Part shown: positions 2,512 to 26,469 of the stretch, piece after piece
How positions within the stretch are numbered: the stretch's first letter is position 1
Layout of the letters: every line of letters begins with the position of its first letter
DNA from: an uncultured Gammaproteobacteria bacterium
GTDB taxonomy: Bacteria > Patescibacteriota > Microgenomatia > Levybacterales > UBA12049
DNA: 31,818 nucleotides
Assembly: GCA_964611415.1 (NCBI GenBank)
Contig: CAZSXQ010000004.1
Span: forward strand, 1 to 31,818
Reading direction: 5' to 3'
Program-made: the position numbers and the translations under genes
Notes under the pieces: generated by a model
The model's input: only the letters and a program-made list of their open reading frames with translations
What the model was told of the DNA's origin: nothing
Databases searched by the model: none

Positions 2512-3306
2512 ATGAAAATAAAAAATCTTCACGATCAGGAAGATTGGGAAAAATATTACAAACACCACCCGCCCCTTGAGGTAAAATTAAGCTCCGGAAT
2601 TTTTAATTCCTACGATATTTTCTTATGCGACTATCTAATTAAAAAACATATCCCGGAAAATAAAGACTTACTAAAAAATCTTCCTGTGATTTGTGAGATA
2701 GGAGGAGGAGACGGACTTCTAGTAAAAAAGTTTGCCCAAATGATAGGTTACAAGCCGTATAGTATCGAATACTCAAAAAAGGCAGCCGCAATCTCTGCAA
2801 GAAACGGTGTAGAAGTTTATGTCGCCGATGCTTTTGACAAAAAAGTAACAAGTAAATTCAAAAACAAATTTGATGCTGTTTTTTCTTACGGTTTTATTGA
2901 GCATATTATCCCCCCGGAAAAAGCGATCAGACTTCACTATGATTTAGTTAAACCTGGAGGATACGTCATTATTCAAATTCCGAGATTCAAAGCTTTTAAT
3001 TACTTAAGACTTCTGTTGTTTAGACCAGATTTAATCAAAAATCATAATCTTGAGATTATGAACGAAGATATTTTGGGAAAATTATGCAAAGATCCTGAAA
3101 TAAAAAAAATATTTTGCGGAAATTACGGAACATTTAAGCTTAGGCTTCCTATGGAAGAAAAAAATCTAAAATATTATACATTGAAAGTTATTTGCTATTT
3201 TGATTACATACTAAATCCTTTATTCAGAATTTTGTTTGGCTCTAAAGGGTTTGAGAGTTATCTTTTTAGTCCCTCTGTTCTGTTCATCGGACAAAAGAAG
3301 AAATAG
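2512..3306 (+). CDS. Class I SAM-dependent methyltransferase
   Basis: Motif I CEIGGGDG, FDAVFSYGFIEHI, LVKPGG. Confidence 0.9.
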   Translation: MKIKNLHDQEDWEKYYKHHPPLEVKLSSGIFNSYDIFLCDYLIKKHIPENKDLLKNLPVICEIGGGDGLLVKKFAQMIGYKPYSIEYSKKAAAISARNGVEVYVADAFDKKVTSKFKNKFDAVFSYGFIEHIIPPEKAIRLHYDLVKPGGYVIIQIPRFKAFNYLRLLLFRPDLIKNHNLEIMNEDILGKLCKDPEIKKIFCGNYGTFKLRLPMEEKNLKYYTLKVICYFDYILNPLFRILFGSKGFESYLFSPSVLFIGQKKK

Positions 3307-3317
3307 TTTTTTACGAT

Positions 3318-4511
3318 ATGTTAAGAGTTCCATATGCTCTGTCAGTTTATGATGAAAACGAAATTAACGCTGTAGTAAAAGTGCTTAAAGAGCATCGAAC
3401 AAACGCAGGAAAAGAAACAAGTAAATTCGAAGAAAGAATTGCAAAATTATTTGGAAAGAACTACGGAATAATGGTTAACTCCGGTTCGTCAGCAAATCTC
3501 TTAGCAGTTGAGCTATCAGATCTTCCTCCAAAATCAGAAGTTATTACTCCCGCATTAACTTTTTCAACTACTATTGCTCCTCTCATTCAAAAAGGACTTG
3601 TTCCGGTTTTTACGGATGTCCTTCCCGGAAAGTATGTAATAGATGTGGATCAAGTTGAAAAACTAATAACCCCGAAGACAAAGGCATTAATGGTTCCCCT
3701 TCTTTTAGGAAATGTTCCCGACATGGAAAAACTTCAGTCAATTGCAAAAAAACATAATCTTATATTTATTGAAGACTCCTGTGACACAGTAGGAGCAACG
3801 TATAAAGGAAAGGCCACAGGCTATTACTCAAACTTTACTACTACAAGTTTTTTCGGCTCACACATAATTACCACTGGAGGAAATGGAGGAATGGTTTTAG
3901 TAAACGGGTCAAAACATAGAGATCGCGCAAAAATATTACGAGGATGGGGAAGAAGCTCTTCAGTATTCAAAGAGTCTGAAAGCATAGAAAAAAGGTTCAA
4001 ACAAAAAATAGGCGACGTAGAATACGATGCAAAGTTCATTTTCGATGAAATAGGTTACAACTTTCTTCCTAACGAGATGTGTGCTGCTTTTGGAAATATC
4101 CAATTAAAAAAAATAAACATATTTAAAAGAACTAGAGAAAGAAACTTTAGTTATTTAAAAAACTTTTTTAAAAAATACGAAAACTTTTTTATTCTACCCC
4201 AAGAAGAAGAAAACGTATCAACTCAGTGGCTAGCATTTCCTCTTACTATAAAAAAAACAGCTCCTTTTACGAGGATTGAATTGGTAAAATATTTGGAAAG
4301 ATCTAACATTCAGACTCGTCCTATTTTTACCGGAAACATTTTAAAACAACCTGGATTTAAAAACATTCCGCGGATTGAGAGCAAAAATGGATATCCTGTT
4401 ACTGATGAAATCATGGAAAGAGGATTTGTGGTGGGGTGTCATCACGGGTTAGAAGAAAAACATATTGATAAATTAAAAGAGGTATTTGAAGATTTTATGA
4501 AGAGGTATTAG
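3318..4511 (+). CDS. DegT/DnrJ/EryC1/StrS family PLP/PMP enzyme, RfbH(E1)/ColD-type sugar 3-dehydratase-like
   Basis: VNSGSSANLLA, EDSCD, SFFGSHIITTGGNGG (His182 at the usual Lys position), RGWGR...KRF...YDAKFIFDEIGYN, QTRPIFTGNI. Confidence 0.85.
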   Translation: MLRVPYALSVYDENEINAVVKVLKEHRTNAGKETSKFEERIAKLFGKNYGIMVNSGSSANLLAVELSDLPPKSEVITPALTFSTTIAPLIQKGLVPVFTDVLPGKYVIDVDQVEKLITPKTKALMVPLLLGNVPDMEKLQSIAKKHNLIFIEDSCDTVGATYKGKATGYYSNFTTTSFFGSHIITTGGNGGMVLVNGSKHRDRAKILRGWGRSSSVFKESESIEKRFKQKIGDVEYDAKFIFDEIGYNFLPNEMCAAFGNIQLKKINIFKRTRERNFSYLKNFFKKYENFFILPQEEENVSTQWLAFPLTIKKTAPFTRIELVKYLERSNIQTRPIFTGNILKQPGFKNIPRIESKNGYPVTDEIMERGFVVGCHHGLEEKHIDKLKEVFEDFMKRY

Positions 4512-5626: not shown

Positions 5627-6361
5627 TTATTTATTTTTTTTAGCCACTAATATAAGAATTGAAGCCAGGGAGTATTTATTAGAAAATAAACGATCCATAA
5701 TACGTATTATCCCAGGAAACATTGTGAACTCTAGCCCGGACTTTTTAACAATTTTAAAACCGTGAAGCTCTACTATGTCAGCAAGTGCTCCCCCTGTAAA
5801 AACACGCATGTGACCTAGTGGACTTTTGTAATTAGTAAATTTTCTTGTAAATTTAATTCCCAAGGTTTTATCGAGCGTGCTTACTTCGGTAAAAAAGGGC
5901 TGAAGTCCAATAAGCAAAAAAAATCTATTAAACCAAGCAGCAAGGTTAGGAGTGCTAATGATCATAACCCCCCCTTTTTTTAAAACTCTTTTTGCTTCTC
6001 GCATAAGATGATCCGGATTAACGACATGTTCGATAATATGAGAAATAATCACTATGTCAAATGAAGCATCTTTGTAATTCCATTTTTCCTCTGCATCCCC
6101 AAGTCTAACATTCATTCCGTTTTTTCTACATATCTCCAGAGCCTCTTCGTTTAAATCAAATCCATACACATTGTCGCTTAAAGTTTTACCAAGCGAACTG
6201 ACTCCACAAGCTACATCAAGAACTTTCTTTTTGGAAGAAAATGGAATCTCTGGAATCTTAGCCCTAGTAAGCTTAACCCCTTCTTCAGTTATTTTGATTT
6301 CAGCATCTCCAATGTTGGAATATGTTTCGTGGTAATATGAGGTCGATTTAGACGATTTCAT
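5627..6361 (-). CDS. Class I SAM-dependent methyltransferase
   Basis: VLDVACG, FDIVIISHIIEHV, RVLKKGG, STPN. Confidence 0.9.
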   Translation of the reverse strand: MKSSKSTSYYHETYSNIGDAEIKITEEGVKLTRAKIPEIPFSSKKKVLDVACGVSSLGKTLSDNVYGFDLNEEALEICRKNGMNVRLGDAEEKWNYKDASFDIVIISHIIEHVVNPDHLMREAKRVLKKGGVMIISTPNLAAWFNRFFLLIGLQPFFTEVSTLDKTLGIKFTRKFTNYKSPLGHMRVFTGGALADIVELHGFKIVKKSGLEFTMFPGIIRIMDRLFSNKYSLASILILVAKKNK

Positions 6362-7280
6362 TTTTTCTTCTAATCACCTTTTCAATTACTGAACAGATTT
6401 GTTCCGGAAGTAGACCATTCAGTCCTCTCATAAAATTCTGATTCCCCGTTTTTTTACTAAACTCGTTTGGAACTCCTATTCTTTTAAACATGACACCTGT
6501 TTTATTTTCAGCAAGAACTTCTGCCATCGCACTACCTAGACCTCCGGTAATAAAATGCTCTTCAAGGGAAAAAATACTTTTTCCTTTTCTCGCATATTCA
6601 AGAATTATTTTCTCATCTAATGGTTTTATAGAGGGCATGCTAATTACTCCTATGGAATATTTCTTTTTAAGCATTTCTGATACTTTTACTGCTGTAGGAA
6701 GCATTGTTCCCATAGTAAAGATCGTAACATCCATACCTTTCTTTACTACAATTCCTTTTCCTATACTAAATTTAGGTTTTTTAATATGAACCGTAGGCTC
6801 TCCGGCTTTTCCTAATCTTATATAAACAGGTCCATTAATTTTAAAAGCAGCTTTGGTAACAAGTTCTGTCTCAATGGGATCTCCCGGAGCAAAGATTGTA
6901 ATTCCGGGAATTGTCCTCATTACACCTAGATCTTCAAGTCCATAATGAGTATGACCGTAAGGACCATATGAAAATCCGGATCCGATTCCCACAATTTTTA
7001 CATTCAAATTTTGATAACAAATATCATTTCTGACTTGTTCGAAATTTCTCATAGTTACAAAAGGCATTATTGAATAAATAACTGGAATTCTCCCTCCCAT
7101 TGCCATTCCAGCTGCTGCTCCTGTCATGTTTTGCTCTGCAACTCCTGCATTAAGATATTGCTTTGGGAGCTTTTCAATAAATTCTTCAAAAACTGAAAAC
7201 CCAAGATCTCCCGTTAAAAGCATTATTCTTTCATCCTTCTTGGCAAGCTCAAAAAGTGTTTTCACAAATGCAATTCTCAC
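6348..7280 (-). CDS. Transketolase-like protein, C-terminal subunit (pyrimidine-binding + C-terminal domain)
   Basis: GVAEQNM, FEQVRND, GHTHYGLED, PVYIRLGK, EEHFITGGLGSA. Confidence 0.93.
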   Translation of the reverse strand: MRIAFVKTLFELAKKDERIMLLTGDLGFSVFEEFIEKLPKQYLNAGVAEQNMTGAAAGMAMGGRIPVIYSIMPFVTMRNFEQVRNDICYQNLNVKIVGIGSGFSYGPYGHTHYGLEDLGVMRTIPGITIFAPGDPIETELVTKAAFKINGPVYIRLGKAGEPTVHIKKPKFSIGKGIVVKKGMDVTIFTMGTMLPTAVKVSEMLKKKYSIGVISMPSIKPLDEKIILEYARKGKSIFSLEEHFITGGLGSAMAEVLAENKTGVMFKRIGVPNEFSKKTGNQNFMRGLNGLLPEQICSVIEKVIRRKNEIV

Positions 7281-8104
7281 TTTAAATCCTCCATTGCATT
7301 TTTATATTCTTCCTCGGTTGGAGGCTTATACTGTGAGGCTACCTGATCAACATATTTTGGAATTCCCTTATATCCTTTGATCGTATGAGCAATTAGTACT
7401 GAGGGTTTATTATTCTCAAATGGAATGTTAACTAGTGATTTAATAATTTTTTCAATATCATGACCATCGACCTCATTCACTCCCCATCCAAAATTTTTCC
7501 ATTTTTCAGCAAAGGGCTCTAGCGTAAGTATCTCATCTGTTCTTCCAAAGCCTTGAAGCTTATTGTAATCAACTATTGCTATTAAATTCTTTAACTTTTG
7601 ATGACCCGCAAAAAGCATAGCCTCCCAATTCGATCCCTCATCACACTCTCCATCAGAAAGCATTACAAATACTCTCTGTTTAGACTTATCTATTTTTTTA
7701 GCATATGCTAACCCAACTCCAATTGATAATCCGTGTCCAAGGGATCCAGCAGACGCCTCTACACCAGGAACTACATTTCTGGTAGTATGACCCGGTAAAC
7801 CATTATTAGCTTCATAACTGGAAAGAATCTCTTTATCAAAGTATCCCTTTTCCGCTAACACTGCATATAATGCCTTGCTATCATGGGCTTTACTGAAGAT
7901 CAAATAATCTCTTTTATCATCTTGTGGCTTTTTAGGATTAACTCTCATAATCTGAAAGTAAAGAACCGTAAGTAGCTCTACACAAGAAAGTGCACCTCCC
8001 ATGTGAGCACTTTTAGCATTATATGCCATAGTTATAATCATTCTTCTTATCTCGTCAGCATGCTGTTCTAGTAATTTACTATCGCTCTTCAACTTATTAT
8101 TCAT
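7277..8104 (-). CDS. Transketolase-like protein, N-terminal ThDP-binding subunit
   Basis: SAHMGG, SKAH, PGH, GSLGHG, SDGECDEG...N ThDP motif, VDGHD, HTIKG. Confidence 0.93.
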   Translation of the reverse strand: MNNKLKSDSKLLEQHADEIRRMIITMAYNAKSAHMGGALSCVELLTVLYFQIMRVNPKKPQDDKRDYLIFSKAHDSKALYAVLAEKGYFDKEILSSYEANNGLPGHTTRNVVPGVEASAGSLGHGLSIGVGLAYAKKIDKSKQRVFVMLSDGECDEGSNWEAMLFAGHQKLKNLIAIVDYNKLQGFGRTDEILTLEPFAEKWKNFGWGVNEVDGHDIEKIIKSLVNIPFENNKPSVLIAHTIKGYKGIPKYVDQVASQYKPPTEEEYKNAMEDLK

Positions 8105-9041
8105 ATAAATAATTGTTTTTACTAAACCATTCTATAGTTTTTAACAGTCCCTCGTCCAGCGAATGTTTTGCCCTCCATCGTAACATTTTTGAGGTTTTTC
8201 TCGTGTCTGCTTGCCATTTCCCAGATTCCACCTGCCTTTCTTGTATCGGCACTGCTCCCCACTCAACTTTTGATCTGCTTCCAGATAAATTCACTATCCT
8301 GTTAACTGTTTCCTCTAATGTGTGCTGACGTCCTGTACCAATATTAAAGATTTCACCGGGATTTATTTTTACCTTGCATGTGTTTAGATAAGCATCTACC
8401 ATGTCTTCTATGTAGATAAAGTCTCTTACATTTTTTTTATTACCTACCGAAATTGGATCATTTTTTATTGCTGCTCTGACAACGGTTGGGATAAAGCGGG
8501 GCTTATGCTCATAAGGACCGTACGCTGAAAATAAGCGGAATGTAATTATCGGGAGATTGTTCCGCACTGCTTCTTTATGTACATATAGCGTTACTGCAGT
8601 TTTAATTACCCCGTAATCATTTATGGGAAAAGATAGATCTGTTTCGATCATTTTTCCAAACTTTACTCCATATTCTGAAGAACTTCCCGTATTGATAAAT
8701 AGTTTAAATGGAACTTTCTTCGAAGCATTTATTAAATTAATTGTTCCTTTAAGATTAACATTTATTAAATCTTCAATCTTATCTTCTTTTGGCAATGATC
8801 CATAAGCGGCAAGATGAAATATGTAGGTGGGTTTAATTTTAGAAATGACTTTATCAAGTTTGTAATCAAGGAGATCGACTTCATGGGCTTTTATTTTTGT
8901 TTTAAGATCAGAAAGTCTCCAGTTGAGTATTTTATTTCTAGAAAGAACATGTACGTCTTTCCCTTCTTTAACCAGACGTCTAACAATATTTGCGCCTACA
9001 AAACCAGTTGCCCCAGTAACTAAATAAATATCTTTATTCAT
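8097..9041 (-). CDS. NAD(P)-dependent epimerase/reductase (extended SDR), candidate NDP-keto-sugar reductase
   Basis: TGATGFVG, SSSEYG, YGVIK (YxxxK), RDFIYIED. Confidence 0.88.
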   Translation of the reverse strand: MNKDIYLVTGATGFVGANIVRRLVKEGKDVHVLSRNKILNWRLSDLKTKIKAHEVDLLDYKLDKVISKIKPTYIFHLAAYGSLPKEDKIEDLINVNLKGTINLINASKKVPFKLFINTGSSSEYGVKFGKMIETDLSFPINDYGVIKTAVTLYVHKEAVRNNLPIITFRLFSAYGPYEHKPRFIPTVVRAAIKNDPISVGNKKNVRDFIYIEDMVDAYLNTCKVKINPGEIFNIGTGRQHTLEETVNRIVNLSGSRSKVEWGAVPIQERQVESGKWQADTRKTSKMLRWRAKHSLDEGLLKTIEWFSKNNYLYE

Positions 9042-10171
9042 TTCAAAAACATTGGCTCAGGAGCAATCACAGCTATTTGAGATTTTTTATAGCCATATTT
9101 ACCCATCAAGGTTTTAATTATTTCTTCTTTGTATGCCATAGCCGTGACGACGACAACATCTGCTTCTTTTTTTAAAAGCCTATCAACTGAAAAAACCGGT
9201 ATATGGCTTCCGGGAAGGTATGTACCTCTTTTATTGGGATCCGAATCAACACAAAATAAAATTTTGTTCTTTTCAATGTTTGAAAAAGATATTGAAGATA
9301 TCCCTTTTGCACCTGCCCCCCATAACACCACTTTCCTATTTTCTAACTTACCAAAGAAATCTTTGTATTGATCCCTATAATCGACAAATCGCTTTTGGAC
9401 ACTATTACTAAGTCCTGATTTTGAAGTGTATTGAAAGTAAGCTATTAAATAATTCTCATCTGGAGAATGTTTTATTGATAAAACATCGAATCCGTTTTGC
9501 TGAAGCATATATGATAATGAGGTTGGTGAGTAATAGGCAACGTGATCAGGGAAAAAATCATAATACCTATTGTCTCTTAAGGCTTTAACCAAAGATGGAA
9601 CTTCAACCAATCCGTATCCATCAACTTTCAGAAACTTTTTTACATTTGTAAGTAATTTTTCAGGATTTGAAATGTGTTCGAAAACCTCAAGGGTTACAAA
9701 TGCATCCGCTTTCTTACCTAATTTAAATCTATCATCGACATAATTTCTAAGAACTTTTACTCCTTTTTCCCTTGCAAGCTTAGTAGCTATATCACTTGGT
9801 TCTATTCCTATTGATTTTGCTTTTGCATTCATAAGAGCGTAAACAAAATATCCATCTCCGCATCCGACATCAATAACTAATTTATTTTTTAGATTGAAAG
9901 ACCCAACAAAATCACGAGCTAACCCCTTCAAATATTTACGAGCATGAGGCGAATAAGTACGGCTCATAATATAATCATCGTAGTAGTCGTCGACAACATA
10001 ATTTTTGTCTGAAAGCTGAACCAGCGTGCATCTCTCGCATTTTAAAATTTTTAGATTTATTTTTTTATCTTTTAGTAGATTTTTCTCAGAGATAACCTGA
10101 ACACGCATAGGAGCATTTGGGACTTCTAGGAATACGGTGAGTTTAATAAAACCACAGGAAATACATCTCAT
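9038..10171 (-). CDS. NDP-hexose C-methyltransferase-like protein (Zn-binding N-terminus, SAM domain, C-terminal Rossmann-like domain)
   Basis: CxxC (CISC) ... CxxC (CERC), DVGCGDG, EVFEHI, PDHVAYYS, LWGAGAKG, VDSDPNKRGTYLPGSHIPV: TylCIII/TcaB9-type architecture. Confidence 0.8.
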   Translation of the reverse strand: MRCISCGFIKLTVFLEVPNAPMRVQVISEKNLLKDKKINLKILKCERCTLVQLSDKNYVVDDYYDDYIMSRTYSPHARKYLKGLARDFVGSFNLKNKLVIDVGCGDGYFVYALMNAKAKSIGIEPSDIATKLAREKGVKVLRNYVDDRFKLGKKADAFVTLEVFEHISNPEKLLTNVKKFLKVDGYGLVEVPSLVKALRDNRYYDFFPDHVAYYSPTSLSYMLQQNGFDVLSIKHSPDENYLIAYFQYTSKSGLSNSVQKRFVDYRDQYKDFFGKLENRKVVLWGAGAKGISSISFSNIEKNKILFCVDSDPNKRGTYLPGSHIPVFSVDRLLKKEADVVVVTAMAYKEEIIKTLMGKYGYKKSQIAVIAPEPMFLK

Positions 10172-11124
10172 AAAATTTTACTATACCAATCTAGCACTCC
10201 AGGGAGTGCTTTTTCAAGTGTGTATTCATTTTTCCAACCTAAGCTTCTTATTTTCTGATCATTTAAATGTTGATAAGGAATTTCATTTTTAGCATTATTT
10301 TTAATTACATATTTTATTTTTTTACCAAATACTTTTTCTGCTAATTTAATTAATTCTAAAACAGACAGCTTGTCGCTAGATGAAAAATTATATGCTTCTC
10401 CAATTGTTTTCTCTAAAGAATTTGCAAGAAGCAAATATCCATCAACAACATCTTTTACATACAAATAATCGCGTACGTATTTGCCGTTACTTCTAATAAC
10501 AAACGTCTCATCCCTTATTAGTGCTTCACAAATGCCAGGAATTATCCTATCCATATGTAAATCGCCCTCCCCATATACGTTTCCGAAACGGGTTATAACG
10601 ACAGGAAGATTATATGTTTTAAAATATGTTTGAGAAATAAGATCTGCTGAGGATTTGGACACGTCATAGGGATGATCGCCCTTGAGAGGGGTTTCTTCAG
10701 TATAGGGTTTTTCCGTTTTTCCGTATGCCTTGTCTGAAGAAGCTACGATAACTCCTTTCACAAAACTCTTTCTTGATGTCTCTAAAACATTTACAGTTCC
10801 AAGAATATTTGTTTCAAATGTTAAAACAGGATTGGAATACCCCGCGCTTACAATCGGCTCTGCAGCAAGATGGAAAACGAGCTCAGGGTTAGATTCTTTA
10901 AAAACCCTGAAAACTTCGTTAATATCTCTGATATCTACCAGCTCAAACTTTGAGTTTTTATAAGATCCGTTGGATACATAATTTGAGAATCGAGAGATAA
11001 CTATGTCAATTACCGTAACGCTTGCACCCTCCGATATCAAAGAATAAACCAAATGGCTTCCTATAAATCCTGCCCCGCCGGTTACCAAAATCCTTTTACC
11101 CTTCAATCCTGCCATACTCTCCAT
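10168..11124 (-). CDS. rfbG: CDP-glucose 4,6-dehydratase-like SDR
   Basis: TGGAGFIGS, HLAAEPIV, SSDKAYG, PYDVSKS, RFGNVYGEGD; directly downstream of rfbF. Confidence 0.82.
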   Translation of the reverse strand: MESMAGLKGKRILVTGGAGFIGSHLVYSLISEGASVTVIDIVISRFSNYVSNGSYKNSKFELVDIRDINEVFRVFKESNPELVFHLAAEPIVSAGYSNPVLTFETNILGTVNVLETSRKSFVKGVIVASSDKAYGKTEKPYTEETPLKGDHPYDVSKSSADLISQTYFKTYNLPVVITRFGNVYGEGDLHMDRIIPGICEALIRDETFVIRSNGKYVRDYLYVKDVVDGYLLLANSLEKTIGEAYNFSSSDKLSVLELIKLAEKVFGKKIKYVIKNNAKNEIPYQHLNDQKIRSLGWKNEYTLEKALPGVLDWYSKIL

Positions 11125-11882
11125 TCCGGATTATCTATCCAGAGCTTGTTTAAACTATCAACATCAGGATAAGTGTCCATAGAATGCCAGAATCCCTCAT
11201 GTATGAAAATAGAAAGCTGGTCTTTTGAAATTAAACGCTTGAAGGCTTCATGTTCCATTTCTCCCTCTTTAATATAATCGAACACTTCACGCTTAAATAC
11301 CATAAATCCGCCATTTACCCACTCCTTCAGAACCGGCTTTTCTGTAAATTTCGAAGCGAGAAACTTATCATTTGCAGTAATTAAACCATACTTGCTTCTA
11401 GGATGAACTCCTATAATAGTGCCTATTGTTTTTTGTTTCTTGTGAAATTTTACGATTTGATTTATATCAACATTTGAAACTCCATCGCCATAAGTAACCA
11501 TAAAATTCTGATCTTCCTTAGGAATGTATCTCTTAATTCTTAAAATCCTTTCTCCGGGAAGAGTTTCCTCTCCCGTATCTACAAATGTGATTTTAAAGTT
11601 GTCACTATCTTTACCTGTCCTTTTATAAACCTTTGTATTTCCGGATTTTGTGTGAAGAGTAAAATTATAAGCGTAGAGCTGTTGATTAATAAAGTATTGC
11701 TTTATAAAGTCCCCTTTGTATCCAAGAGCTATTATAAAATCGTTATATCCGTAATGAGAATATATTTTCATTATGTGCCACAGGATTGGTTTTCCTCCAA
11801 TTTGAACCATAGGCTTTGGCTTAAATTCAGTCTCTTCTTTAAGTCTGTAGCCAATCCCTCCGCAGAGTATTACTGTTTTCAT
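11103..11882 (-). CDS. rfbF: Glucose-1-phosphate cytidylyltransferase
   Basis: ILCGGIGYRLKEETEFKPKPMVQIGGKPILWHIMKIYSHYG, VDTGEET, TYGDGVSNV, WVNGGF, GFWHSMDT. Confidence 0.93.
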   Translation of the reverse strand: MKTVILCGGIGYRLKEETEFKPKPMVQIGGKPILWHIMKIYSHYGYNDFIIALGYKGDFIKQYFINQQLYAYNFTLHTKSGNTKVYKRTGKDSDNFKITFVDTGEETLPGERILRIKRYIPKEDQNFMVTYGDGVSNVDINQIVKFHKKQKTIGTIIGVHPRSKYGLITANDKFLASKFTEKPVLKEWVNGGFMVFKREVFDYIKEGEMEHEAFKRLISKDQLSIFIHEGFWHSMDTYPDVDSLNKLWIDNPEWRVWQD

Positions 11883-12053: not shown

Positions 12054-13025
12054 ATGCCTAATAAAGCAATCGTTATTACTTCTATTTATCCTCCCACAAA
12101 AGCTGTTTTATTATTTTCAAAGCTTAAGAGCTTTGCTATGTTTGTTTCTGGAGATAATAAAACTCCAAAAGGGTGGAGCCATAAAAATGTTCACTATCTA
12201 TCCATTAGCGATCAGCACAAGAAATTTCCCAAACTTTCAAAACTAGTTTCCCAAAATCATTATGCTAGGAAAAACTTTGCTTACTTAAGCGCAATTTTAT
12301 CAGGAATAGAATTCTTATACGAAACAGACGATGATAACCTTCCTTATAATTTTTTCCCAAATTTTATAGATTCAGAAAAAAACATGGAAGAAATCAATGC
12401 TCCATTAAGTTTTAATATATATTCTGAATTTACAAAAAAGAGAGTATGGCCTCGTGGTATACCCCTCAATCTTATTGATAATAAGATCTCTAAAAGGAAA
12501 AAAAATAAAGTTATACCATTAATTCAGCAATCGCTTGCAGACCTAGATCCTGATGTTGACGCGATATATCGCTTAACCAACGGCGATGTGATAACCTTCG
12601 CAAAAGGAAAGATACTTTGCTTAGCAACAGGTACCTTTGCACCATTTAATTCTCAAAATACTTATTGGAGTAAAAAAGTTTTCCCACTACTCTATCTCCC
12701 TTCAACGGTGGATAGCAGAGTATGCGATATTTGGAGGGGATATATCGCTCAAAGAATTCTGTGGGAGCTCAACTCAAGACTTATCTTTCTATCTCCTTCA
12801 GTTTATCAAAAGAGAAATGTTCATGATTACATGAAAGACTTCGTACAAGAACTTGAACTCTACACTAAAACCGAAGATTTATTAATTACCCTTAACAAAA
12901 TCAAGCTTAAGGGAAATATTGATGTTATGTTAATCGATATTTATTCACTACTAATTGAAAAGGGATTCTTTAAAAAAAAGGAATTATCAATACTTAGAGA
13001 ATGGCTGAGATTAGCCTCGCAGTAG
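12054..13025 (+). CDS. STELLO/DUF288-like glycosyltransferase-family protein
   Basis: IVITSI..PT, GDNKTP, YARKNFAYL, ETDDDN, WPRGIPL, QSLADLDPDVDAIYRL, PFNSQNT, RVCDIWRGYIAQRILW, RNVHDYMKDF. Confidence 0.82.
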   Translation: MPNKAIVITSIYPPTKAVLLFSKLKSFAMFVSGDNKTPKGWSHKNVHYLSISDQHKKFPKLSKLVSQNHYARKNFAYLSAILSGIEFLYETDDDNLPYNFFPNFIDSEKNMEEINAPLSFNIYSEFTKKRVWPRGIPLNLIDNKISKRKKNKVIPLIQQSLADLDPDVDAIYRLTNGDVITFAKGKILCLATGTFAPFNSQNTYWSKKVFPLLYLPSTVDSRVCDIWRGYIAQRILWELNSRLIFLSPSVYQKRNVHDYMKDFVQELELYTKTEDLLITLNKIKLKGNIDVMLIDIYSLLIEKGFFKKKELSILREWLRLASQ

Positions 13026-13033
13026 CATTTTTA

Positions 13034-13972
13034 TTATTTTATTTTTTGATCGGTATACCAATCAATAGTTCTTTTTATTCCTTCTTGAAAATCGACTTTA
13101 GCAACAAACCCGAACTCTCGCTTGGCTCTTGACACATCAAGGGACCTTCTTGGTTGTCCATCCGGCTTTGTCCTATCCCATCTTATTTCACCTTTATAAT
13201 TCATTAATTTACATATTAGTTTTATTAAATCTTTAATAGATATCTCCATTCCTGATCCCAAATTAACAGGTTCTGAACTTTCATATTTCTGAGTCGCTAG
13301 AACAATCCCCCTAGCTGCGTCTTCTACGTATAAAAATTCTCTGGTCGCTCTTCCGCTCCCCCATATCTCAACATAGGGATTTTTCTTAAGCTTCGCCTCA
13401 TATACTTTTTTAATCAGTGCTGGTATAACATGCGAAGATTTAGGGTCAAAATTATCACCAGGACCATATAGATTAACAGGCAGAAGATAAATACTTTTAA
13501 AGCCGTATTGCTGTCTATATGCTTGGGATTGTACAAGGAGCATTTTTTTAGCCAGTCCGTAAGGAGCATTTGTTTCTTCGGGATAGCCTTCCCATATATC
13601 CTCTTCTTTAAACGGAATTGGAGCAAACTTAGGATAAGCACATACTGTACCAATTGCAATGAATTTCTTGACCTCAGCAAGCCTAGATGCCTCAATAAGC
13701 TGTACGCCCATCATTAAGTTATCATAAAAAAAGCTTCCGGGATTTTCTCTATTTGCTCCGATTCCTCCTACGACAGCTGCAAGATGGATAATAATATCTT
13801 TTCCTTTAACAGCTTTTTTACAATCTTCCAACTTTCTGAGATCAATTTCTTTTGAAGATGGGGTGAATATTTGTTTTCTAGCAATCCCTTTACTTAATAA
13901 CTCATTAATTACATACGATCCCAAAAATCCATTTCCTCCTGTAACCAAAATTTTCTTATTTTTTAGCTGCAT
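13034..13972 (-). CDS. fcl: GDP-L-fucose synthase family (GDP-4-keto-6-deoxymannose 3,5-epimerase/4-reductase)
   Basis: [67 protein letters not shown]. Confidence 0.93.
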
Positions 13973-20311: not shown

Positions 20312-21347
20312 CTTCGTATACTTTTTCCATGCCGGTCACAAACTTTTCCCACGTAAATTGTTTTGCCTGTTTAAGTCCTTTTTCCGACATTTCTTCCAAA
20401 ACCCTTTTATTATCTAAAAGCTCTTCTATTCCTTTGGCAATTGAGCCGGAGTCATTTGCATCAATATAACAGGGGGCGTCTCCACCGACTTCTTCAAGTG
20501 AAGAAACTTTAGAAGTGATGACAGGGCAACCGGCCTGCATTGCCTCAAGAACCCCTAAACCAAAGCCTTCATAAAGAGATGGCATTAGAAATATGCTCGC
20601 ATGATTATATAAATCGTTTAGATCTTCATCCTCTACAAATCCAGGAAGAAAAAAATGGTTATCGTTTTTTATAATATCTTGGAAGCTTGCCAATTCCTTA
20701 TTCCAAGCATTTTTTTTGTCATAATTTTCGTTCCTAAGAGCTTTTCCTACCATTACTATATTAGTATTTGTTTTTTTTACAGCTTCAGCAATTCTTACAA
20801 GATTTTTGTTCCACGTAGCATCTCCTACGTAAAGTATGAAATCCTCTGGGAAATTATATTTCTTTAAAACTCTTTTTTCTTTAGTTTTTTTTCTAAAAAC
20901 TTTCGATGCTGCGAGAGGAACTACTCTTACTTTTTTAGGATTAACGCTTACTATTCTTAGTATATCTTTCCTCGACGATTCCGAATCTGTAACTATTAAA
21001 TTTTTATTCTTAAGCGCCTGCTTTTGGATTTCCCATTTTAGTCTTCCTTTCACTCCGACAGGAAACATTTTTGGGAAAACTAGAGGAATAAGATCGTGCA
21101 CTGTAACTATGGCCGGTATTTTTACTCTCAGAGGAAGAGATAGAAAAAAAGGTTCGAAGTATGGATAGTGAACTAAGTCAAAACCGCTTAGCGGTACGGA
21201 TTTATTTTCTATAATTGTATATGAATTTTTCCTATCATAGATAGACATATTGTTTATTAATTCTCTGATATATGTTCCTGAGCCTCTTACTTCATGTTGA
21301 GCTAGGTTATCTCGATTCAAGGGTGATTTATCAATTGCTATCCTCAT
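20298..21347 (-). CDS. GT4 family glycosyltransferase (mannosyltransferase-like)
   Basis: TVHDLIPL, TDSESSR, YVGDATWNKN, PSLYEGFGLGVLEAMQAGCPVITS. Confidence 0.92.
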   Translation of the reverse strand: MRIAIDKSPLNRDNLAQHEVRGSGTYIRELINNMSIYDRKNSYTIIENKSVPLSGFDLVHYPYFEPFFLSLPLRVKIPAIVTVHDLIPLVFPKMFPVGVKGRLKWEIQKQALKNKNLIVTDSESSRKDILRIVSVNPKKVRVVPLAASKVFRKKTKEKRVLKKYNFPEDFILYVGDATWNKNLVRIAEAVKKTNTNIVMVGKALRNENYDKKNAWNKELASFQDIIKNDNHFFLPGFVEDEDLNDLYNHASIFLMPSLYEGFGLGVLEAMQAGCPVITSKVSSLEEVGGDAPCYIDANDSGSIAKGIEELLDNKRVLEEMSEKGLKQAKQFTWEKFVTGMEKVYEDVFI

Positions 21348-22999
21348 TTTTTAATTATAACAGGAGTTTTAATCAAGAGTGTTGTTAACGTTAACACTGA
21401 AATTAAAAAGATTATGTAAGACGTTTTTTGGACTTTAGTACTTTTCAGAAAAACCCTAATCTCATGTTTACCTTTAGGAATTTCTATTCCTATCTTGCCT
21501 TTTTTGTTTAATAAGTTACCTTTTTTTTCATCAATTTCAACACTCCATCCAGGAAAATAAGCAGTGTTAACTAATATTTCCGATTTTTCATTTAAGCTAG
21601 CTTTAAGTTTATATTCATTAGATTTCATTTCTAAAAACTGTATGTCTCCTAAATTTTTATCAATCTCGATTATTTGGGGGGTCTTCTGGGGAACTGCTGG
21701 CAACCAAGCAGTGTTAAAAGCATCTCCAGGACTATTTGTACCATCCGTAAAATTAGACCTGGATAAATAATAATTATCTGTCCTTAGATGATGGAAAGGT
21801 GCTTTAGCATAACCGTAGCCTAAACCAAAAGAAAGAAGGATTAAGATGAGTGCAACAAAAACCCTTGCTCTATAGCGATTCTTATAAAACTTTTCTTGTA
21901 CTAACCCTCCTGCTAAGAAAGATGTAATCACTATTAATACGCTCAAAAGTCTCCAGGGAAACTGGACGAATGACGCTAACGGTACAATTTCCCAAAGCCA
22001 AGAGGAAAAAGGTGTAATAAGAAAAAGAAATAAAAAGAATAATCCGAGAAAGAAAATTATATTCTTTTTATTTTTTAGAAAAAATAATGATACTAGGGAA
22101 ATCAAAACTACCGACACATTTGCTATTCCTATCTGAAAGGACATCTGGTCAGCTCCTCCTACACCAGAAAAACCGTATCCCCAAGAAGAATAAATTAATT
22201 TATAAAGAACCGGATAATGATCGGCAGGTAAAGACGTTTGGAGCCCTACTACAAACATCTTCTCTATTAATGCTGGTAGCCAGAAAGGCGCTGCCAGGCC
22301 TAGACCAAGAATTGCTATCATTGCAAATTTTTTAACTTCATGTATTTTATTTTTAACATTCGATATAAGGAAAGCCGCATAAAGAAGAAAAAATGAGAAG
22401 AATACGAGCGCCAAAATGTTATGAGAATAAACTAAAAGAGTTAAAAATATGACTGATAATAAAACGTAAATACTTTTTTTTGTTTCGATAAGTGAGGAAT
22501 AAGACCATAGAAGTCCGGGAAACAAACCTAAACTCCAAACCTCTCCCACAGACCCTCTTACGTAGACATCAAGAAAATGGTACGGGGAAAAGGTATAAAA
22601 TACTGAAGAAACCACTCCTCCTAAGTCTCCCCAAAACCTCCTGGACCATAAATAAAAGAACACAGAACCAATTAGTGAGGCCATTATCATATTTAATTTA
22701 AAAGAATCAATAAAACTAAATCCTAAAATGTGTAAAAATGAGGCAAAGTAATTAGGCAAGGGGTAGACATAATTAAAAAGAGGTATCCCAAACCCGTTGT
22801 TAAAATCAGGAGCCCATCTCGGATATATAATTCCGTCACTTAAAGCCTTGTGAAACTGCTGAAACCTTAGCACGTGGTATTCTCCATCATGAGTAGGAGG
22901 AAGACCAGGGCTGAATAAGCCTAGGACCGATAGGAATCCAAAAGCCAGAACTACGAACCAATATTTATATTTCAAAAATAATTCCATTTTTATCTTCAT
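21344..22999 (-). CDS. GT-C-type integral membrane protein (PTPS-related/YfhO-like membrane family)
   Basis: THDGEYH..R......L..G..YPRWAPDFNNGFGIPLFNYVYPL, QFPWRLL, many TM segments; start may be 22987. Confidence 0.75.
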   Translation of the reverse strand: MKIKMELFLKYKYWFVVLAFGFLSVLGLFSPGLPPTHDGEYHVLRFQQFHKALSDGIIYPRWAPDFNNGFGIPLFNYVYPLPNYFASFLHILGFSFIDSFKLNMIMASLIGSVFFYLWSRRFWGDLGGVVSSVFYTFSPYHFLDVYVRGSVGEVWSLGLFPGLLWSYSSLIETKKSIYVLLSVIFLTLLVYSHNILALVFFSFFLLYAAFLISNVKNKIHEVKKFAMIAILGLGLAAPFWLPALIEKMFVVGLQTSLPADHYPVLYKLIYSSWGYGFSGVGGADQMSFQIGIANVSVVLISLVSLFFLKNKKNIIFFLGLFFLFLFLITPFSSWLWEIVPLASFVQFPWRLLSVLIVITSFLAGGLVQEKFYKNRYRARVFVALILILLSFGLGYGYAKAPFHHLRTDNYYLSRSNFTDGTNSPGDAFNTAWLPAVPQKTPQIIEIDKNLGDIQFLEMKSNEYKLKASLNEKSEILVNTAYFPGWSVEIDEKKGNLLNKKGKIGIEIPKGKHEIRVFLKSTKVQKTSYIIFLISVLTLTTLLIKTPVIIKK

Positions 23000-24788
23000 A
23001 TATTTTTTTAAATTGCTTAATAAGATCTTTATTGTAATTCATTTCATTTTTTGCAAAACCATCCTTGTATATAACAATATACTTTATATTGTACTTCTCT
23101 AAAATTTCTTTTCTCTGGGCTTCATCACTTCCGTTAATAATTTGCTCACGTTCGGATGTCCTCCGGGAGGGATCTTCTCCGTAAACAAAAAGATAGTGAG
23201 CACGTCCTAGGAAGGTTTTCTTTCCTATGAGAGACATGGGGTCATAAATTTCCCCATTAGTAATAATCATCTTTTCCGGGGATAGCCTATGGAGTGCGGT
23301 TTTCATTAAATCATTTTTACCGTAGTCAGGAATCCTAGTGTAAATGTCATTTTTTATTACCAAATTATTGACAACACCCGAAGATATGAAAACAAAAATA
23401 AGAAGTAGTGACAGGTATTTAATGGCGTTATTAATTTTCGAAACTCGGAAAATTGCATAAGCTGAAAACATATTCATAAATATTATCCAAAGATTAAAAA
23501 ACTTATGATTATCGTACTCAAACCTTGTACTAAACGTTAGGACATTAGGAATTAAAAAAAGCAGAGATGAAATTAAAAAAACTTTTTTTGCATTTCTGTT
23601 AGATAGAAAGAATCCAATTAAAATCAATAACGCACCTATTCCAAGGTTTAAAATCCAAAATTTCATAAACGTAATCGCTGTAAGGTTTTCAATTAGGAAT
23701 CCAATCCTTACTGCAATCAACCCGCTTGAGGAGATACCAACCAAAAACATTTGAATCAGAGAAAATACTGAAGCGATAATAATCACCATTAATAACTCTT
23801 TCTGTCTTTTTACAATAAACATACCTAATATTAGGATCATGATTGCTACAAACATCATTCCGTGCCATAGAAAAGATAGCCCAATCATTGCGCCAAAAAA
23901 AACGGCAGTTTTTAAACTTAAGGATTTTGAATCCCAAAAATAAAAAAAGACAAACAATACGAATGCTATACCAAAGATTAAATGCCTTTGGTTTAAAAAA
24001 GTATTCATATTGAAAAAACTAAATATAAGAGACTTGTCGAAAGGAGCGTTATTTATATAAGTCTGATTTCTCCATATTTCTAAAGGCAAACCAAGGCTAA
24101 CTCCTTTTTGAACAATAAAGTTTAAAAAAGAAAAATTACTTGGAAAAATAAAAAAAAGTGTTGATAGTATAGCTACTATTGCACTTTTAAAAATTCCCCT
24201 AGATATCGAGTAGACATAAAATAACAAGCTAGTAAGTGATAAAGCGCTTATGGTATTAATCGCATAATCAATTCTTAATCCCAGGTTCTCCAATATTCCG
24301 GCAAATAGATCAAACATAAAATAATATATTCCCCCACCATTAGCATAGAAGGGAATTTCGAAAGGAAAATTATTTCCTAGCGAGAATGATCTTATGAAAG
24401 GAATGTGAGCTCCGTAATCCAGATATATATTAGAAGCTATTAAAAATTCTGATGTTGATAAATCATAGCTAAAACTTTTTTTAAATACTAAAAATGAAAT
24501 GATAAAAACTAAAATAAAAATGAGCGGATGAAGAAAGTTTTTATTAGGAGGTTTGATTTTTCTGACATTGACTAAAATAGCGGTCATTACGAAGAATGCA
24601 TAAATAGCTATAGAAAAAGAAAGGCTGCCTATTAAATATGACGTACCTAGGTAAATAATTGGAATTGATACAATTGAACCTAATACAAAAGCGTCAGGAA
24701 TAATTAATTTTTTTTCTCTATCCGGAATAAAAAAACGGCTAAGAAGGAGTCCGGTTAAAAATATAAGAGCTAAAAAAACTATCCACAT
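22965..24788 (-). CDS. Multi-pass membrane protein, probable GT-C glycosyltransferase
   Basis: 607 aa, many TM segments, loop NIYLDYGAHIPFIRSF, YYFMFD, QRHLIFG, soluble C-terminal domain. Confidence 0.65.
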   Translation of the reverse strand: MWIVFLALIFLTGLLLSRFFIPDREKKLIIPDAFVLGSIVSIPIIYLGTSYLIGSLSFSIAIYAFFVMTAILVNVRKIKPPNKNFLHPLIFILVFIISFLVFKKSFSYDLSTSEFLIASNIYLDYGAHIPFIRSFSLGNNFPFEIPFYANGGGIYYFMFDLFAGILENLGLRIDYAINTISALSLTSLLFYVYSISRGIFKSAIVAILSTLFFIFPSNFSFLNFIVQKGVSLGLPLEIWRNQTYINNAPFDKSLIFSFFNMNTFLNQRHLIFGIAFVLFVFFYFWDSKSLSLKTAVFFGAMIGLSFLWHGMMFVAIMILILGMFIVKRQKELLMVIIIASVFSLIQMFLVGISSSGLIAVRIGFLIENLTAITFMKFWILNLGIGALLILIGFFLSNRNAKKVFLISSLLFLIPNVLTFSTRFEYDNHKFFNLWIIFMNMFSAYAIFRVSKINNAIKYLSLLLIFVFISSGVVNNLVIKNDIYTRIPDYGKNDLMKTALHRLSPEKMIITNGEIYDPMSLIGKKTFLGRAHYLFVYGEDPSRRTSEREQIINGSDEAQRKEILEKYNIKYIVIYKDGFAKNEMNYNKDLIKQFKKIYEDKNGIIFEI

Positions 24789-25921
24789 TATTTGATTAAT
24801 TTCCTACCAGAAGCAAGGGACAGATAGGTAAATAGACCGGCAAGTAAAAATAATGGCCCGAATGTTATTCCGATTTTTATATAAGGGGTTAAACCAAAAT
24901 GATTTCCCAAATACATATAGGGAACGTATCTCAGGAGCAGACAGAATGAAAAGATACCGGATAGAAGATAAAGCTTAGTATTTTTTGTAAGCGTTACAAA
25001 AATCAACACCCAGATAAAATACCATGGATAAATTTCTTCTCTAATCGGGGAAAGAAAGAATATTATTGACATAAGAATTGCAGAAAGTATATAAACTTTT
25101 TCCCATTTGATTGCTTTTTTTCTTATTTTTTGCCAAAGAATATAAATATAAACTGGAAAAAGAAACAATGTTGCAAACTTTATCAAAACCGACAAAACTA
25201 AAGAGCCCATTGAGAAAAACAGCTTTCTCTCTTTCAATAAAATTAGTGATAGGAGAGCAAAAAACACCATCACGATGTCATTATGCCCTCCCACAAAGGT
25301 TTCAAACAGAACTAAGGGGTTTAGCCCAAAGAATGCAACCGTGATCACGTCTTTTGATTCTTTCCAAAGGATATATAGAGTTAAAAGGTAAAACAATACG
25401 ACTAACAATTTAAATCCGAACATCATTAATATAAAATTCCAAGAAAGTAAAAAATAAGGTATTCCTGTAAGAACTAACCAAAAAGGTGCGTAAAGCGCAG
25501 TTTTATTTGCTGCGTGAGTGTAATTTAAGAATTCCTGTCCGCTAAATTCTATAGGCATAACTATATAAGGATTTTCCAAGAATCCAAATAGAACTTTGGC
25601 AGTTGTTGTATAGTTAAAAATATCATAAGAAACCATCGCAGGATAGGAAAAAAATAAAAGAGCTGCGGTTATAAATATGACTTTTTTAACAGTGCCCAAA
25701 TGTATATTTTTTTTGTGAGCTTCTCTAACGAACAAAAAATAAATTAAATAAAGAAATGACACAATAAATATAAAAATTAATGAAGCCGAAGGTCTATTGT
25801 GAAGTGAAAAACCTGTGTAAAGACTACTTAGATAACTTAAGTTGGGATCTACAAAAGCGTATGAAAAAATTGTCAAAAGAATCGACGTCAAAATAAAAGC
25901 TGCAAATAAAAACCTACTCAT
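24788..25921 (-). CDS. GT-C glycosyltransferase, MptA/MptB/GT87-like polyprenol-P-sugar-dependent transferase
   Basis: SYDIFNY...ENPY..P, YAPFW, NPLVLFE..GGHND, YPWYFIW. Confidence 0.75.
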   Translation of the reverse strand: MSRFLFAAFILTSILLTIFSYAFVDPNLSYLSSLYTGFSLHNRPSASLIFIFIVSFLYLIYFLFVREAHKKNIHLGTVKKVIFITAALLFFSYPAMVSYDIFNYTTTAKVLFGFLENPYIVMPIEFSGQEFLNYTHAANKTALYAPFWLVLTGIPYFLLSWNFILMMFGFKLLVVLFYLLTLYILWKESKDVITVAFFGLNPLVLFETFVGGHNDIVMVFFALLSLILLKERKLFFSMGSLVLSVLIKFATLFLFPVYIYILWQKIRKKAIKWEKVYILSAILMSIIFFLSPIREEIYPWYFIWVLIFVTLTKNTKLYLLSGIFSFCLLLRYVPYMYLGNHFGLTPYIKIGITFGPLFLLAGLFTYLSLASGRKLIK

Positions 25922-26469
25922 AGTTTCCTGATTCTAATGGATTCTTCTATTTCTTTTTGTATATAAATTTTTGTTGGCTTATCCTTCTCCGGCTGCCAAT
26001 CAAATTCTTCGGGTACAACTTGAAGGATTTGATTAAGCACTTCTTCGTGCTTAAGCGATGCGTTTTTTAGTATTTCTTCTTTTTCTTTTACCGGCTTTTT
26101 ATTCGAAGAGGCTTTGGCTAAACTTTCTCTGGTTTTCCGGAAATAAAGATTTGATTTTTCTAGCGCAACGTTCGCAAGTAAATACTGCTTATATTCAAAA
26201 AGTGTTTTTGATTCAACCAAATATTTATCTGAATATTTGAGATTGTAGTGATACCTAGCAAGATCTCCGAAATACCAATACGCTTCTGCTTTTTCATATA
26301 TTTGATGTATAAAATAAAACTTACTTCCTGGCATAGAAGAAGGATAAGGAAGAACATACTCCGAGGCGAAGGCATACTTTATGCCAGCGAAAAACAGAAA
26401 CAGGAACAATATTAAGAAAAGATAGAGCCGTATGTTATTAATTATGTTTTTTGTGAATGCCATTTCCAT
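25918..26469 (-). CDS. Exported/membrane-anchored hypothetical protein, DUF5667-like
   Basis: N-terminal hydrophobic helix then YVLPYPSSMPGSKFYF and a helical charged body; family call by recollection only. Confidence 0.6.
   Translation of the reverse strand: MEMAFTKNIINNIRLYLFLILFLFLFFAGIKYAFASEYVLPYPSSMPGSKFYFIHQIYEKAEAYWYFGDLARYHYNLKYSDKYLVESKTLFEYKQYLLANVALEKSNLYFRKTRESLAKASSNKKPVKEKEEILKNASLKHEEVLNQILQVVPEEFDWQPEKDKPTKIYIQKEIEESIRIRKL

Follow-up and report, generated by a model that had tools for sequence, protein, structure and literature searches.

A gene in a bacterial surface-glycan cluster encodes a relative of the 3-dehydrase E1 in which the catalytic histidine is kept and, to judge from its sequence, the iron-sulfur site is gone. 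We propose that this enzyme (hereafter, the dehydratase) carries out a ColD-type, glutamate-recycled 3-deoxygenation that would convert CDP-4-keto-6-deoxyglucose to CDP-4-keto-3,6-dideoxyglucose, a reading to which we assign a probability of roughly 0.6. With the histidine present, no cluster, no E3 reductase, and a CDP-glucose module in the same region, ColD-type chemistry is the most economical reading. The window, by which we mean the whole 31,818-nucleotide stretch of DNA analyzed, was recognized as a surface-glycan cluster from the domain content of its open reading frames (ORFs). The features discussed here are collected in Table 1.

Table 1. Positions of the dehydratase gene, its diagnostic residues, and its neighbors in the window
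Feature	Coordinates	Strand	Basis
Class I SAM methyltransferase, same strand as and 11 bp upstream of the dehydratase gene	2512..3306	+	ORF, Pfam
Dehydratase gene, Fe-S-free E1-like sugar 3-dehydratase	3318..4511	+	Intact ORF, 397 aa
Cys155, counterpart of E1 Cys193, sole E1 motif member kept (EDSCD)	3780..3782	+	Alignment
Ser181-His182, catalytic His in place of the Schiff-base Lys	3858..3863	+	Alignments; His182 codon 3861-3863
Loop matching the E1 [2Fe-2S] loop, RGWGR...EYDAKF, residues 208-240	3939..4037	+	Alignments, column counts
Methyltransferase of the minus-strand run	5627-6361	-	Pfam, NCBIfam
Split transketolase-like pair	7277-8104 and 6348-7280	-	Pfam, NCBIfam
SDR reductase	8097-9041	-	Pfam, NCBIfam
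C-methyltransferase	9038-10171	-	Pfam, NCBIfam
NDP-glucose 4,6-dehydratase, rfbG-like, CDP-glucose type best	10168..11124	-	TIGR02622, 205 bits; dTDP type, 186 bits; both under cutoffs
Glucose-1-phosphate cytidylyltransferase-like gene (rfbF)	11103..11882	-	TIGR02623, 275 bits (cutoff 300); next family, 84 bits
GDP-fucose-synthase-like SDR	13034-13972		Family profile match

The dehydratase belongs to the DegT/DnrJ/EryC1/StrS family of fold-type I enzymes, as indicated by a profile match to PF01041 (273.5 bits, residues 12 to 386). Residues D153, S177, and S55-G56-S57, which include the PLP-binding Asp and the phosphate-binding Ser, are invariant in 98 aligned homologs. A sequence-only reading of this DNA had proposed an E1-like scaffold, and this was borne out: RfbH (NF011936) was the best curated family (358.4 bits, short of its cutoff of 423), the loop framework of E1 is retained (see below), and E1 was the closest solved relative both by sequence (phmmer; 3bcx, 250 bits, 34% identity; ColD 2gms, 174 bits, 31% identity) and by fold (TM 0.91, followed by ColD at 0.88). 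The fold comparison used an AlphaFold model of high confidence (pLDDT 96, pTM 0.93). PDB entry 9wvy, a "putative NDP-4-keto-6-deoxyglucose-3-dehydratase," is a remoter relative (135 bits).

The catalytic histidine is unambiguous. The motif SFFGSH terminates at His182, which aligned by phmmer opposite His220 of E1 (replaced by Lys in 3bb8, the entry for the H220K mutant) and His188 of ColD. The dehydratase thus has His where the Schiff-base Lys would stand, as the sequence-only reading had noted, and this replacement characterizes the NDP-sugar 3-dehydratases. Across 150 representatives at 50% identity, His was the sole residue found in this column, apart from a gap in one partial sequence; an ordinary aminotransferase paralog on contig C26 of the host genome has Lys there. 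The preceding residue is Ser in the dehydratase (S181), as in ColD (S187-H188), and Ala in E1 (Ala219-His220). Position 181 is Ser in 26/31 proteins of the query clade and 12/12 ColD-like proteins, and Ala in 47/55 proteins with the E1-type Cys loop.

The reported E1 [2Fe-2S] motif is said to consist of C193, C251, C253, and C261, with the spacing C-X57-C-X1-C-X7-C, and this numbering agrees with our alignment to 3bcx. In that phmmer alignment, C251, C253, C257, and C261 of E1 correspond to S214, V216, S220, and I223 of the dehydratase, and His278 of the E1 motif GYDHKY lies opposite Ala238. The equivalent of C193 is therefore all that remains of the motif, with S, V, and I at C251, C253, and C261. 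The claim that all cysteines and the His ligand position had been replaced thus holds for the four loop cysteines and for His278, a putative ligand, and fails for C193, which is kept as Cys155. A counterpart of Cys155 also occurs in ColD; of the 31 query-clade members, 22 have Cys and 9 have Ala in this column, compared with 54 and 1, respectively, of the 55 Cys-loop proteins. The cluster site of E1 consists of four cysteines (2022 review). Binding of an Fe-S cluster through other cysteines was ruled out: the dehydratase has three cysteines, many close homologs have two, and no Cys column within the query clade exceeds 71%, which excludes a conserved Cys-ligated cluster.

The framework of the E1 loop, WGR...RF...YD.KF, is retained in the dehydratase. 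It is common to the query clade and the Cys-loop proteins (W210, 31/31 and 50/55, respectively; R212, 31/31 and 53/55; R226, 27/31 and 51/55; Y236, 28/31 and 43/55; D237, 31/31 and 54/55) and absent from ColD. The His of YDHKY, in contrast, tracks the Cys loop, being present in 47/61 Cys-loop representatives versus 3/89 Cys-free ones. In the AlphaFold model, the former cluster loop is ordered without metal (pLDDT about 80 to 82) and forms two short helices and a hairpin. Among the close homologs listed, 120/120 combined the catalytic His with a Cys-free loop (33 of them with just two cysteines in total), so the pattern is a family trait and not chance. About half of the 150 representatives lack the loop cysteines. 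The correlations of the Ser-His pair and of the YDHKY His with loop type are suggestive only; as mechanistic switches, the residues at positions 181 and 238 gave striking raw counts but only three supported independent contrasts in a relatedness-aware test, and thus no statistical support. As a separate observation, six Cys-loop E1-type proteins (P0178, P0195, P0216, P0232, P0242, and P0249) are interrupted exactly within the Fe-S loop, past the first loop cysteine, by an intein-like sequence of about 380 aa (...C|F...HN|C...).

Phylogenetic analysis placed the dehydratase in a clade of its own. A tree was computed by maximum likelihood from 105 full-length proteins, with the Lys-type paralog from the host genome as root. 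The query fell within a 31-row clade that lacks the Cys loop and in which just one row has one loop cysteine (SH-aLRT 100); a ColD-like clade, comprising 13 rows, stood apart (SH-aLRT 97). A 45-row subset, on which approximately unbiased (AU) tests were run, recovered the same two clades (support 98 and 99). Forcing the query alone into the ColD clade was rejected (ΔlnL 95.8, p-AU 0.016). The tree that had been proposed as a check against E1/RfbH and ColD therefore sets the query outside ColD, in its own Cys-free clade (SH-aLRT 98 to 100). Constraining the whole Cys-free clade together with ColD was not rejected (p-AU 0.53). Nesting of the Cys-free clade within the Cys-loop E1 group received quick-tree support of 89 to 90, but placing that clade with ColD gave an equally likely tree. 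Either order of the deep branches among the Cys-loop lineages, ColD, and the Cys-free clade would fit these alignments, and we claim neither loss nor gain of the cluster. We regard the Cys-free clade as a putative Fe-S-free sister lineage of E1, and the dehydratase as an apparent mosaic of the E1 loop framework and the ColD Ser-His pair.

Thousands of proteins are 66 to 81% identical to the dehydratase, with source names that include Patescibacteria. Hosts of the Cys-free clade include Ensifer, Sinorhizobium, Ruegeria, Kaistia, Legionella relatives, Flavobacteriales, Gemmatimonadota, and some archaea. Several members are long fused forms with about 200 to 400 extra residues at the C or N terminus (P0121, 728 aa; P0122, 795 aa; P0128; and P0132), which could hint at a functional partner. 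Outside the clade, the host genome encodes a second His-type DegT paralog on contig C2 (about 12120-13292, +; locus L002; 8019-9293 in locus L208). It has a ColD-like loop (RAHGWDRNL) and falls in the ColD-like clade; its neighbors are GT2, GT4, hexapeptide acyltransferase, and PMT_2 genes, and no nucleotidyltransferase was seen in the 18 kb inspected. On the same contig (L208, 9373-11470), a GT4 N-terminal fragment, an ORF of the 23S rRNA intervening-sequence-protein family, and a GT1-domain gene stand in succession, and may represent a glycosyltransferase gene broken by an inserted ORF. A further group with an xNHGRD loop and the catalytic His was found at loci L191-L196 and L198 of Patescibacteria genomes G327, G295, G229, G279, G322, G206, and G367. 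Its best solved relative is a Lys enzyme, perosamine synthase (221 bits versus 174 for E1), and it may be an independent Lys-to-His lineage.

The gene neighborhood points to a CDP-linked substrate. The minus strand from 5627 to 11882 is one overlapping run comprising rfbF, rfbG, and the C-methyltransferase, SDR, split transketolase-like, and methyltransferase genes, a combination that suggests a C-branched deoxysugar; the genes between 5627 and 10171 are likely downstream tailoring genes. The dehydratase gene lies on the strand opposite to the rfbF-rfbG run, about 5.6 kb away, and forms a two-gene plus-strand unit with the upstream methyltransferase gene, with which it is probably cotranscribed. 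We compared the 10 kb around each gene at 80 Cys-free-clade loci and 80 Cys-loop loci. An rfbF-like gene was present within 10 kb at 55/80 Cys-free and 61/80 Cys-loop loci, and split transketolase pairs occurred near 8/80 and 11/80, respectively. Roseibium algicola, a cultured species, has a homolog of 52% identity in the order rfbF, rfbG, homolog, methyltransferase, oxidoreductase, with no E3. This operon order and the rfbF neighbors support a CDP-sugar substrate; the sequence-only suggestion of a CDP sugar is also supported by the rfbF-like and rfbG-like genes of the window. The product of the dehydratase is probably a CDP-linked 3,6-dideoxy sugar, formed with no reductase involved. Elsewhere in the glycan cluster, DUF5667 and PTPS-related membrane proteins are encoded at 25918-26469 (-) and 21344-22999 (-), and the adjacent large ORFs at 22965-24788 and 24788-25921 had no Pfam match.

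No reductase partner was detected. None of the window ORFs of at least 100 aa contained a Fer2 or FNR-type domain, in agreement with the earlier observation that the window lacks an E3, and no E3-type reductase (Fer2, FAD, and NAD domains) was found among those ORFs or in the host genome (G000; 891 kb, 88.9% complete). Across the compared loci, an E3-like Fer2-plus-FNR gene lay within 10 kb of 10/80 Cys-loop genes and 1/80 Cys-free genes, the single match near the latter being a 236-aa flavin-reductase-like ORF that is too short for a full E3. With E3 at just 10 of the 80 Cys-loop loci, adjacency to E3 is a weak discriminator of loop types. Profile searches for SufBD, NifU_N, Fer2, and Fer4 also returned no match in the 88.9%-complete host genome, where the two NAD_binding_1 proteins are an FNR-like protein lacking Fer2 and an RnfD-like membrane protein. 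SufBD and NifU_N were likewise absent from two genomes of the same family (G106 and G328, 99 to 100% complete). The host lineage may lack Fe-S cluster biogenesis altogether.

We scored 401 genomes of the phylum for Cys-loop genes, Cys-free genes, and Fe-S scaffolds. A Cys-loop E1-type gene was present in 16 genomes, all of which encode NifU_N and 11 of which also encode SufBD. The Cys-free type was present in eight, and four of these had neither scaffold (Fisher p = 0.007 for scaffold absence in Cys-free versus Cys-loop genomes, uncorrected for relatedness). These four scaffold-free genomes represent two lineages only, the host family and three genomes of one other family, and the association is a consistent pattern, not statistical proof. 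It fits a Cys loop that is a real Fe-S site needing assembly machinery and a Cys-free enzyme working without one. The sequence-only reading had further suggested that such an enzyme would suit a host poor in Fe-S machinery. This is upheld in part: the host genome shows no SufBD, NifU_N, Fer2, or Fer4, but Ensifer, Ruegeria, Flavobacteriales, and others carry members of the clade too, so the clade is not an adaptation special to the host organism. Within the phylum sample, moreover, Cys-loop genes were present in twice as many genomes as Cys-free genes (16 versus 8).

Just three types of 3-dehydratase, namely, E1, ColD, and SpnQ, are listed as characterized in the 2022 review. E1 (AscC, DdhC, or RfbH; CDP-6-deoxy-L-threo-D-glycero-4-hexulose 3-dehydrase of Yersinia pseudotuberculosis and Salmonella; PDB 3BCX) is CDP linked, contains Fe-S, and needs E3. 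SpnQ (dTDP-4-keto-2,6-dideoxyglucose 3-dehydratases of actinomycete antibiotic clusters) is dTDP linked and contains Fe-S but uses general reductases. ColD (WbdK; GDP-4-keto-6-deoxy-D-mannose 3-dehydratase of E. coli O55:H7) is GDP linked and has no Fe-S. The dehydratase resembles E1 in its His for Lys, in the W-G-R...R-F...Y-D-x-K loop framework, and in its association with rfbF and rfbG, but differs from it in lacking C251, C253, C261, and His278, in having Ser-His instead of Ala-His, in the absence of E3 from window and genome, in an N terminus about 40 residues shorter, and in a score under the RfbH family cutoff. With ColD it shares the histidine, the Ser-His pair, and the lack of an Fe-S site. 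However, ColD forms a separate clade, has a RAHGW-type loop without WGR...RF...YD.K, and occurs in a GDP-mannose or GDP-heptose context, whereas the context of the dehydratase is CDP-glucose. The characterized ColD-type enzymes are all GDP linked and 62 to 67% identical to one another, including the C. jejuni HS:5 and HS:11 C3-dehydratases (Raushel laboratory paper). SpnQ shares the His-type DegT fold and the lack of a dedicated E3 gene but has a Cys loop and a [2Fe-2S] cluster that receives electrons from general ferredoxin/flavodoxin systems. Its context is dTDP, as in a Streptomyces rfbH locus (L007); the loop of the dehydratase is Cys-free, and its gene cluster has no RmlA-type gene.

These enzymes differ in the fate of the PMP-glucoseen intermediate. 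E1 and SpnQ reduce it through their own [2Fe-2S] cluster (2022 review). In ColD and its GDP-heptose relatives, it is hydrolyzed with release of ammonia, PMP is regenerated from L-glutamate, and no reductase is needed (2022 review; Raushel laboratory paper). We propose the latter chemistry for the dehydratase. The RfbF-like enzyme would form CDP-glucose, which the RfbG-like enzyme would convert to CDP-4-keto-6-deoxy-D-glucose. The PMP of the dehydratase would then form a ketimine with C4 of this substrate, and His182 would take the C4' proton as the 3-OH departs, giving PMP-3,4-glucoseen. Hydrolysis as in ColD, instead of the reduction by [2Fe-2S] and E3 used by E1, would follow; the enamine would tautomerize and lose ammonia, yielding CDP-4-keto-3,6-dideoxyglucose, and L-glutamate would return PLP to PMP. 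The keto product could then pass to the neighboring C-methyltransferase, transketolase-like pair, and reductase.

Because SpnQ, itself a His enzyme, transaminates in vitro without a reductase (2022 review), the dehydratase might instead be a sugar 4-aminotransferase. PMP would arise from PLP and glutamate, and the ketimine would be reprotonated, with the 3-OH retained, to give CDP-4-amino-4,6-dideoxyglucose, perhaps then N-methylated by the methyltransferase whose gene, on the same strand, precedes the dehydratase gene by 11 bp. Under such conditions, however, E1 and ColD show no transferase activity (2022 review), and the Lys-to-His replacement is a strictly conserved hallmark of dehydratases. 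The surrounding genes also argue against an amino product. The neighboring C-methyltransferase and transketolase-like enzymes require a keto sugar, no N-acyltransferase was found among the window ORFs, and the upstream methyltransferase has only generic PDB matches and a homolog at 1/80 related loci; with no specific similarity to solved methyltransferases, we rejected it as an amino-sugar N-methyltransferase. We consider an aminotransferase unlikely.

It is improbable, too, that the dehydratase is a ColD-type enzyme acting on a GDP-sugar or other nucleotide sugar, with the nearby CDP genes serving another sugar. The acceptable sisterhood of the Cys-free and ColD clades (p-AU 0.53), the GDP-fucose-synthase-like gene, and the lack of contiguity between the dehydratase gene and rfbF-rfbG would all accommodate such a substrate. 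They are offset by the rfbF-like genes near 55/80 clade loci and the Roseibium homolog directly after rfbF-rfbG, by the separate ColD-like paralog on another contig of the host genome, and by the window itself, in which no mannose-1-phosphate guanylyltransferase (ManC) or GMD was recognized. For an E1-like reductive route, in which an external donor reduces the PMP-glucoseen with no cluster in the dehydratase, we know of no precedent. Although the E1-like scaffold and loop framework, the one FNR-like flavoprotein of the host genome, and the proximity of E3 to just 10/80 Cys-loop loci (so that partners can be encoded elsewhere) leave room for it, this route is very unlikely, given that E1 and SpnQ each need their own cluster as electron conduit (2022 review), that Fer2, Fer4, and Fe-S assembly genes were undetected in the host genome, and that the redox-neutral ColD route requires nothing extra.

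The Cys-free dehydratase lineage is real and widespread; it is not a new category. It is very large, with thousands of metagenomic members in candidate phyla, Proteobacteria, Bacteroidota, and some archaea. Our full-text literature searches found neither an assay of a CDP-linked, Fe-S-free 3-dehydratase nor a published characterization of any member of the Cys-free clade. New here are the ColD-like paralog in the same genome, the contrast between Ser-His and Ala-His, the AU tests, and the comparison of Fe-S scaffolds. Automatic labels for the clade, either "CDP-6-deoxy-D-xylo-4-hexulose-3-dehydrase" or aminotransferase, mask the fact that the usual E1/E3 pathway cannot run there.

If ColD-type deoxygenation by the dehydratase is true, a cluster-free enzyme of the CDP pathway built on the E1 scaffold would be a fourth mechanistic type. 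It would show whether a few residues, namely, the loop cysteines and the Ser or Ala before the catalytic His, can switch glucoseen release between a reductive and a hydrolytic mode, and it would make CDP-3,6-dideoxyhexoses accessible without metal or reductase, which would be useful for the enzymatic synthesis of rare sugars. More tentatively, the Cys-free clade as a whole may constitute a fourth class of 3-dehydratases, specific for CDP-hexoses, redox neutral, and metal free, that joins the E1 scaffold to ColD chemistry. Independence from Fe-S would then let bacteria without Fe-S biogenesis genes, such as this CPR lineage, still produce the 3,6-dideoxy and branched sugars of their surface glycans.
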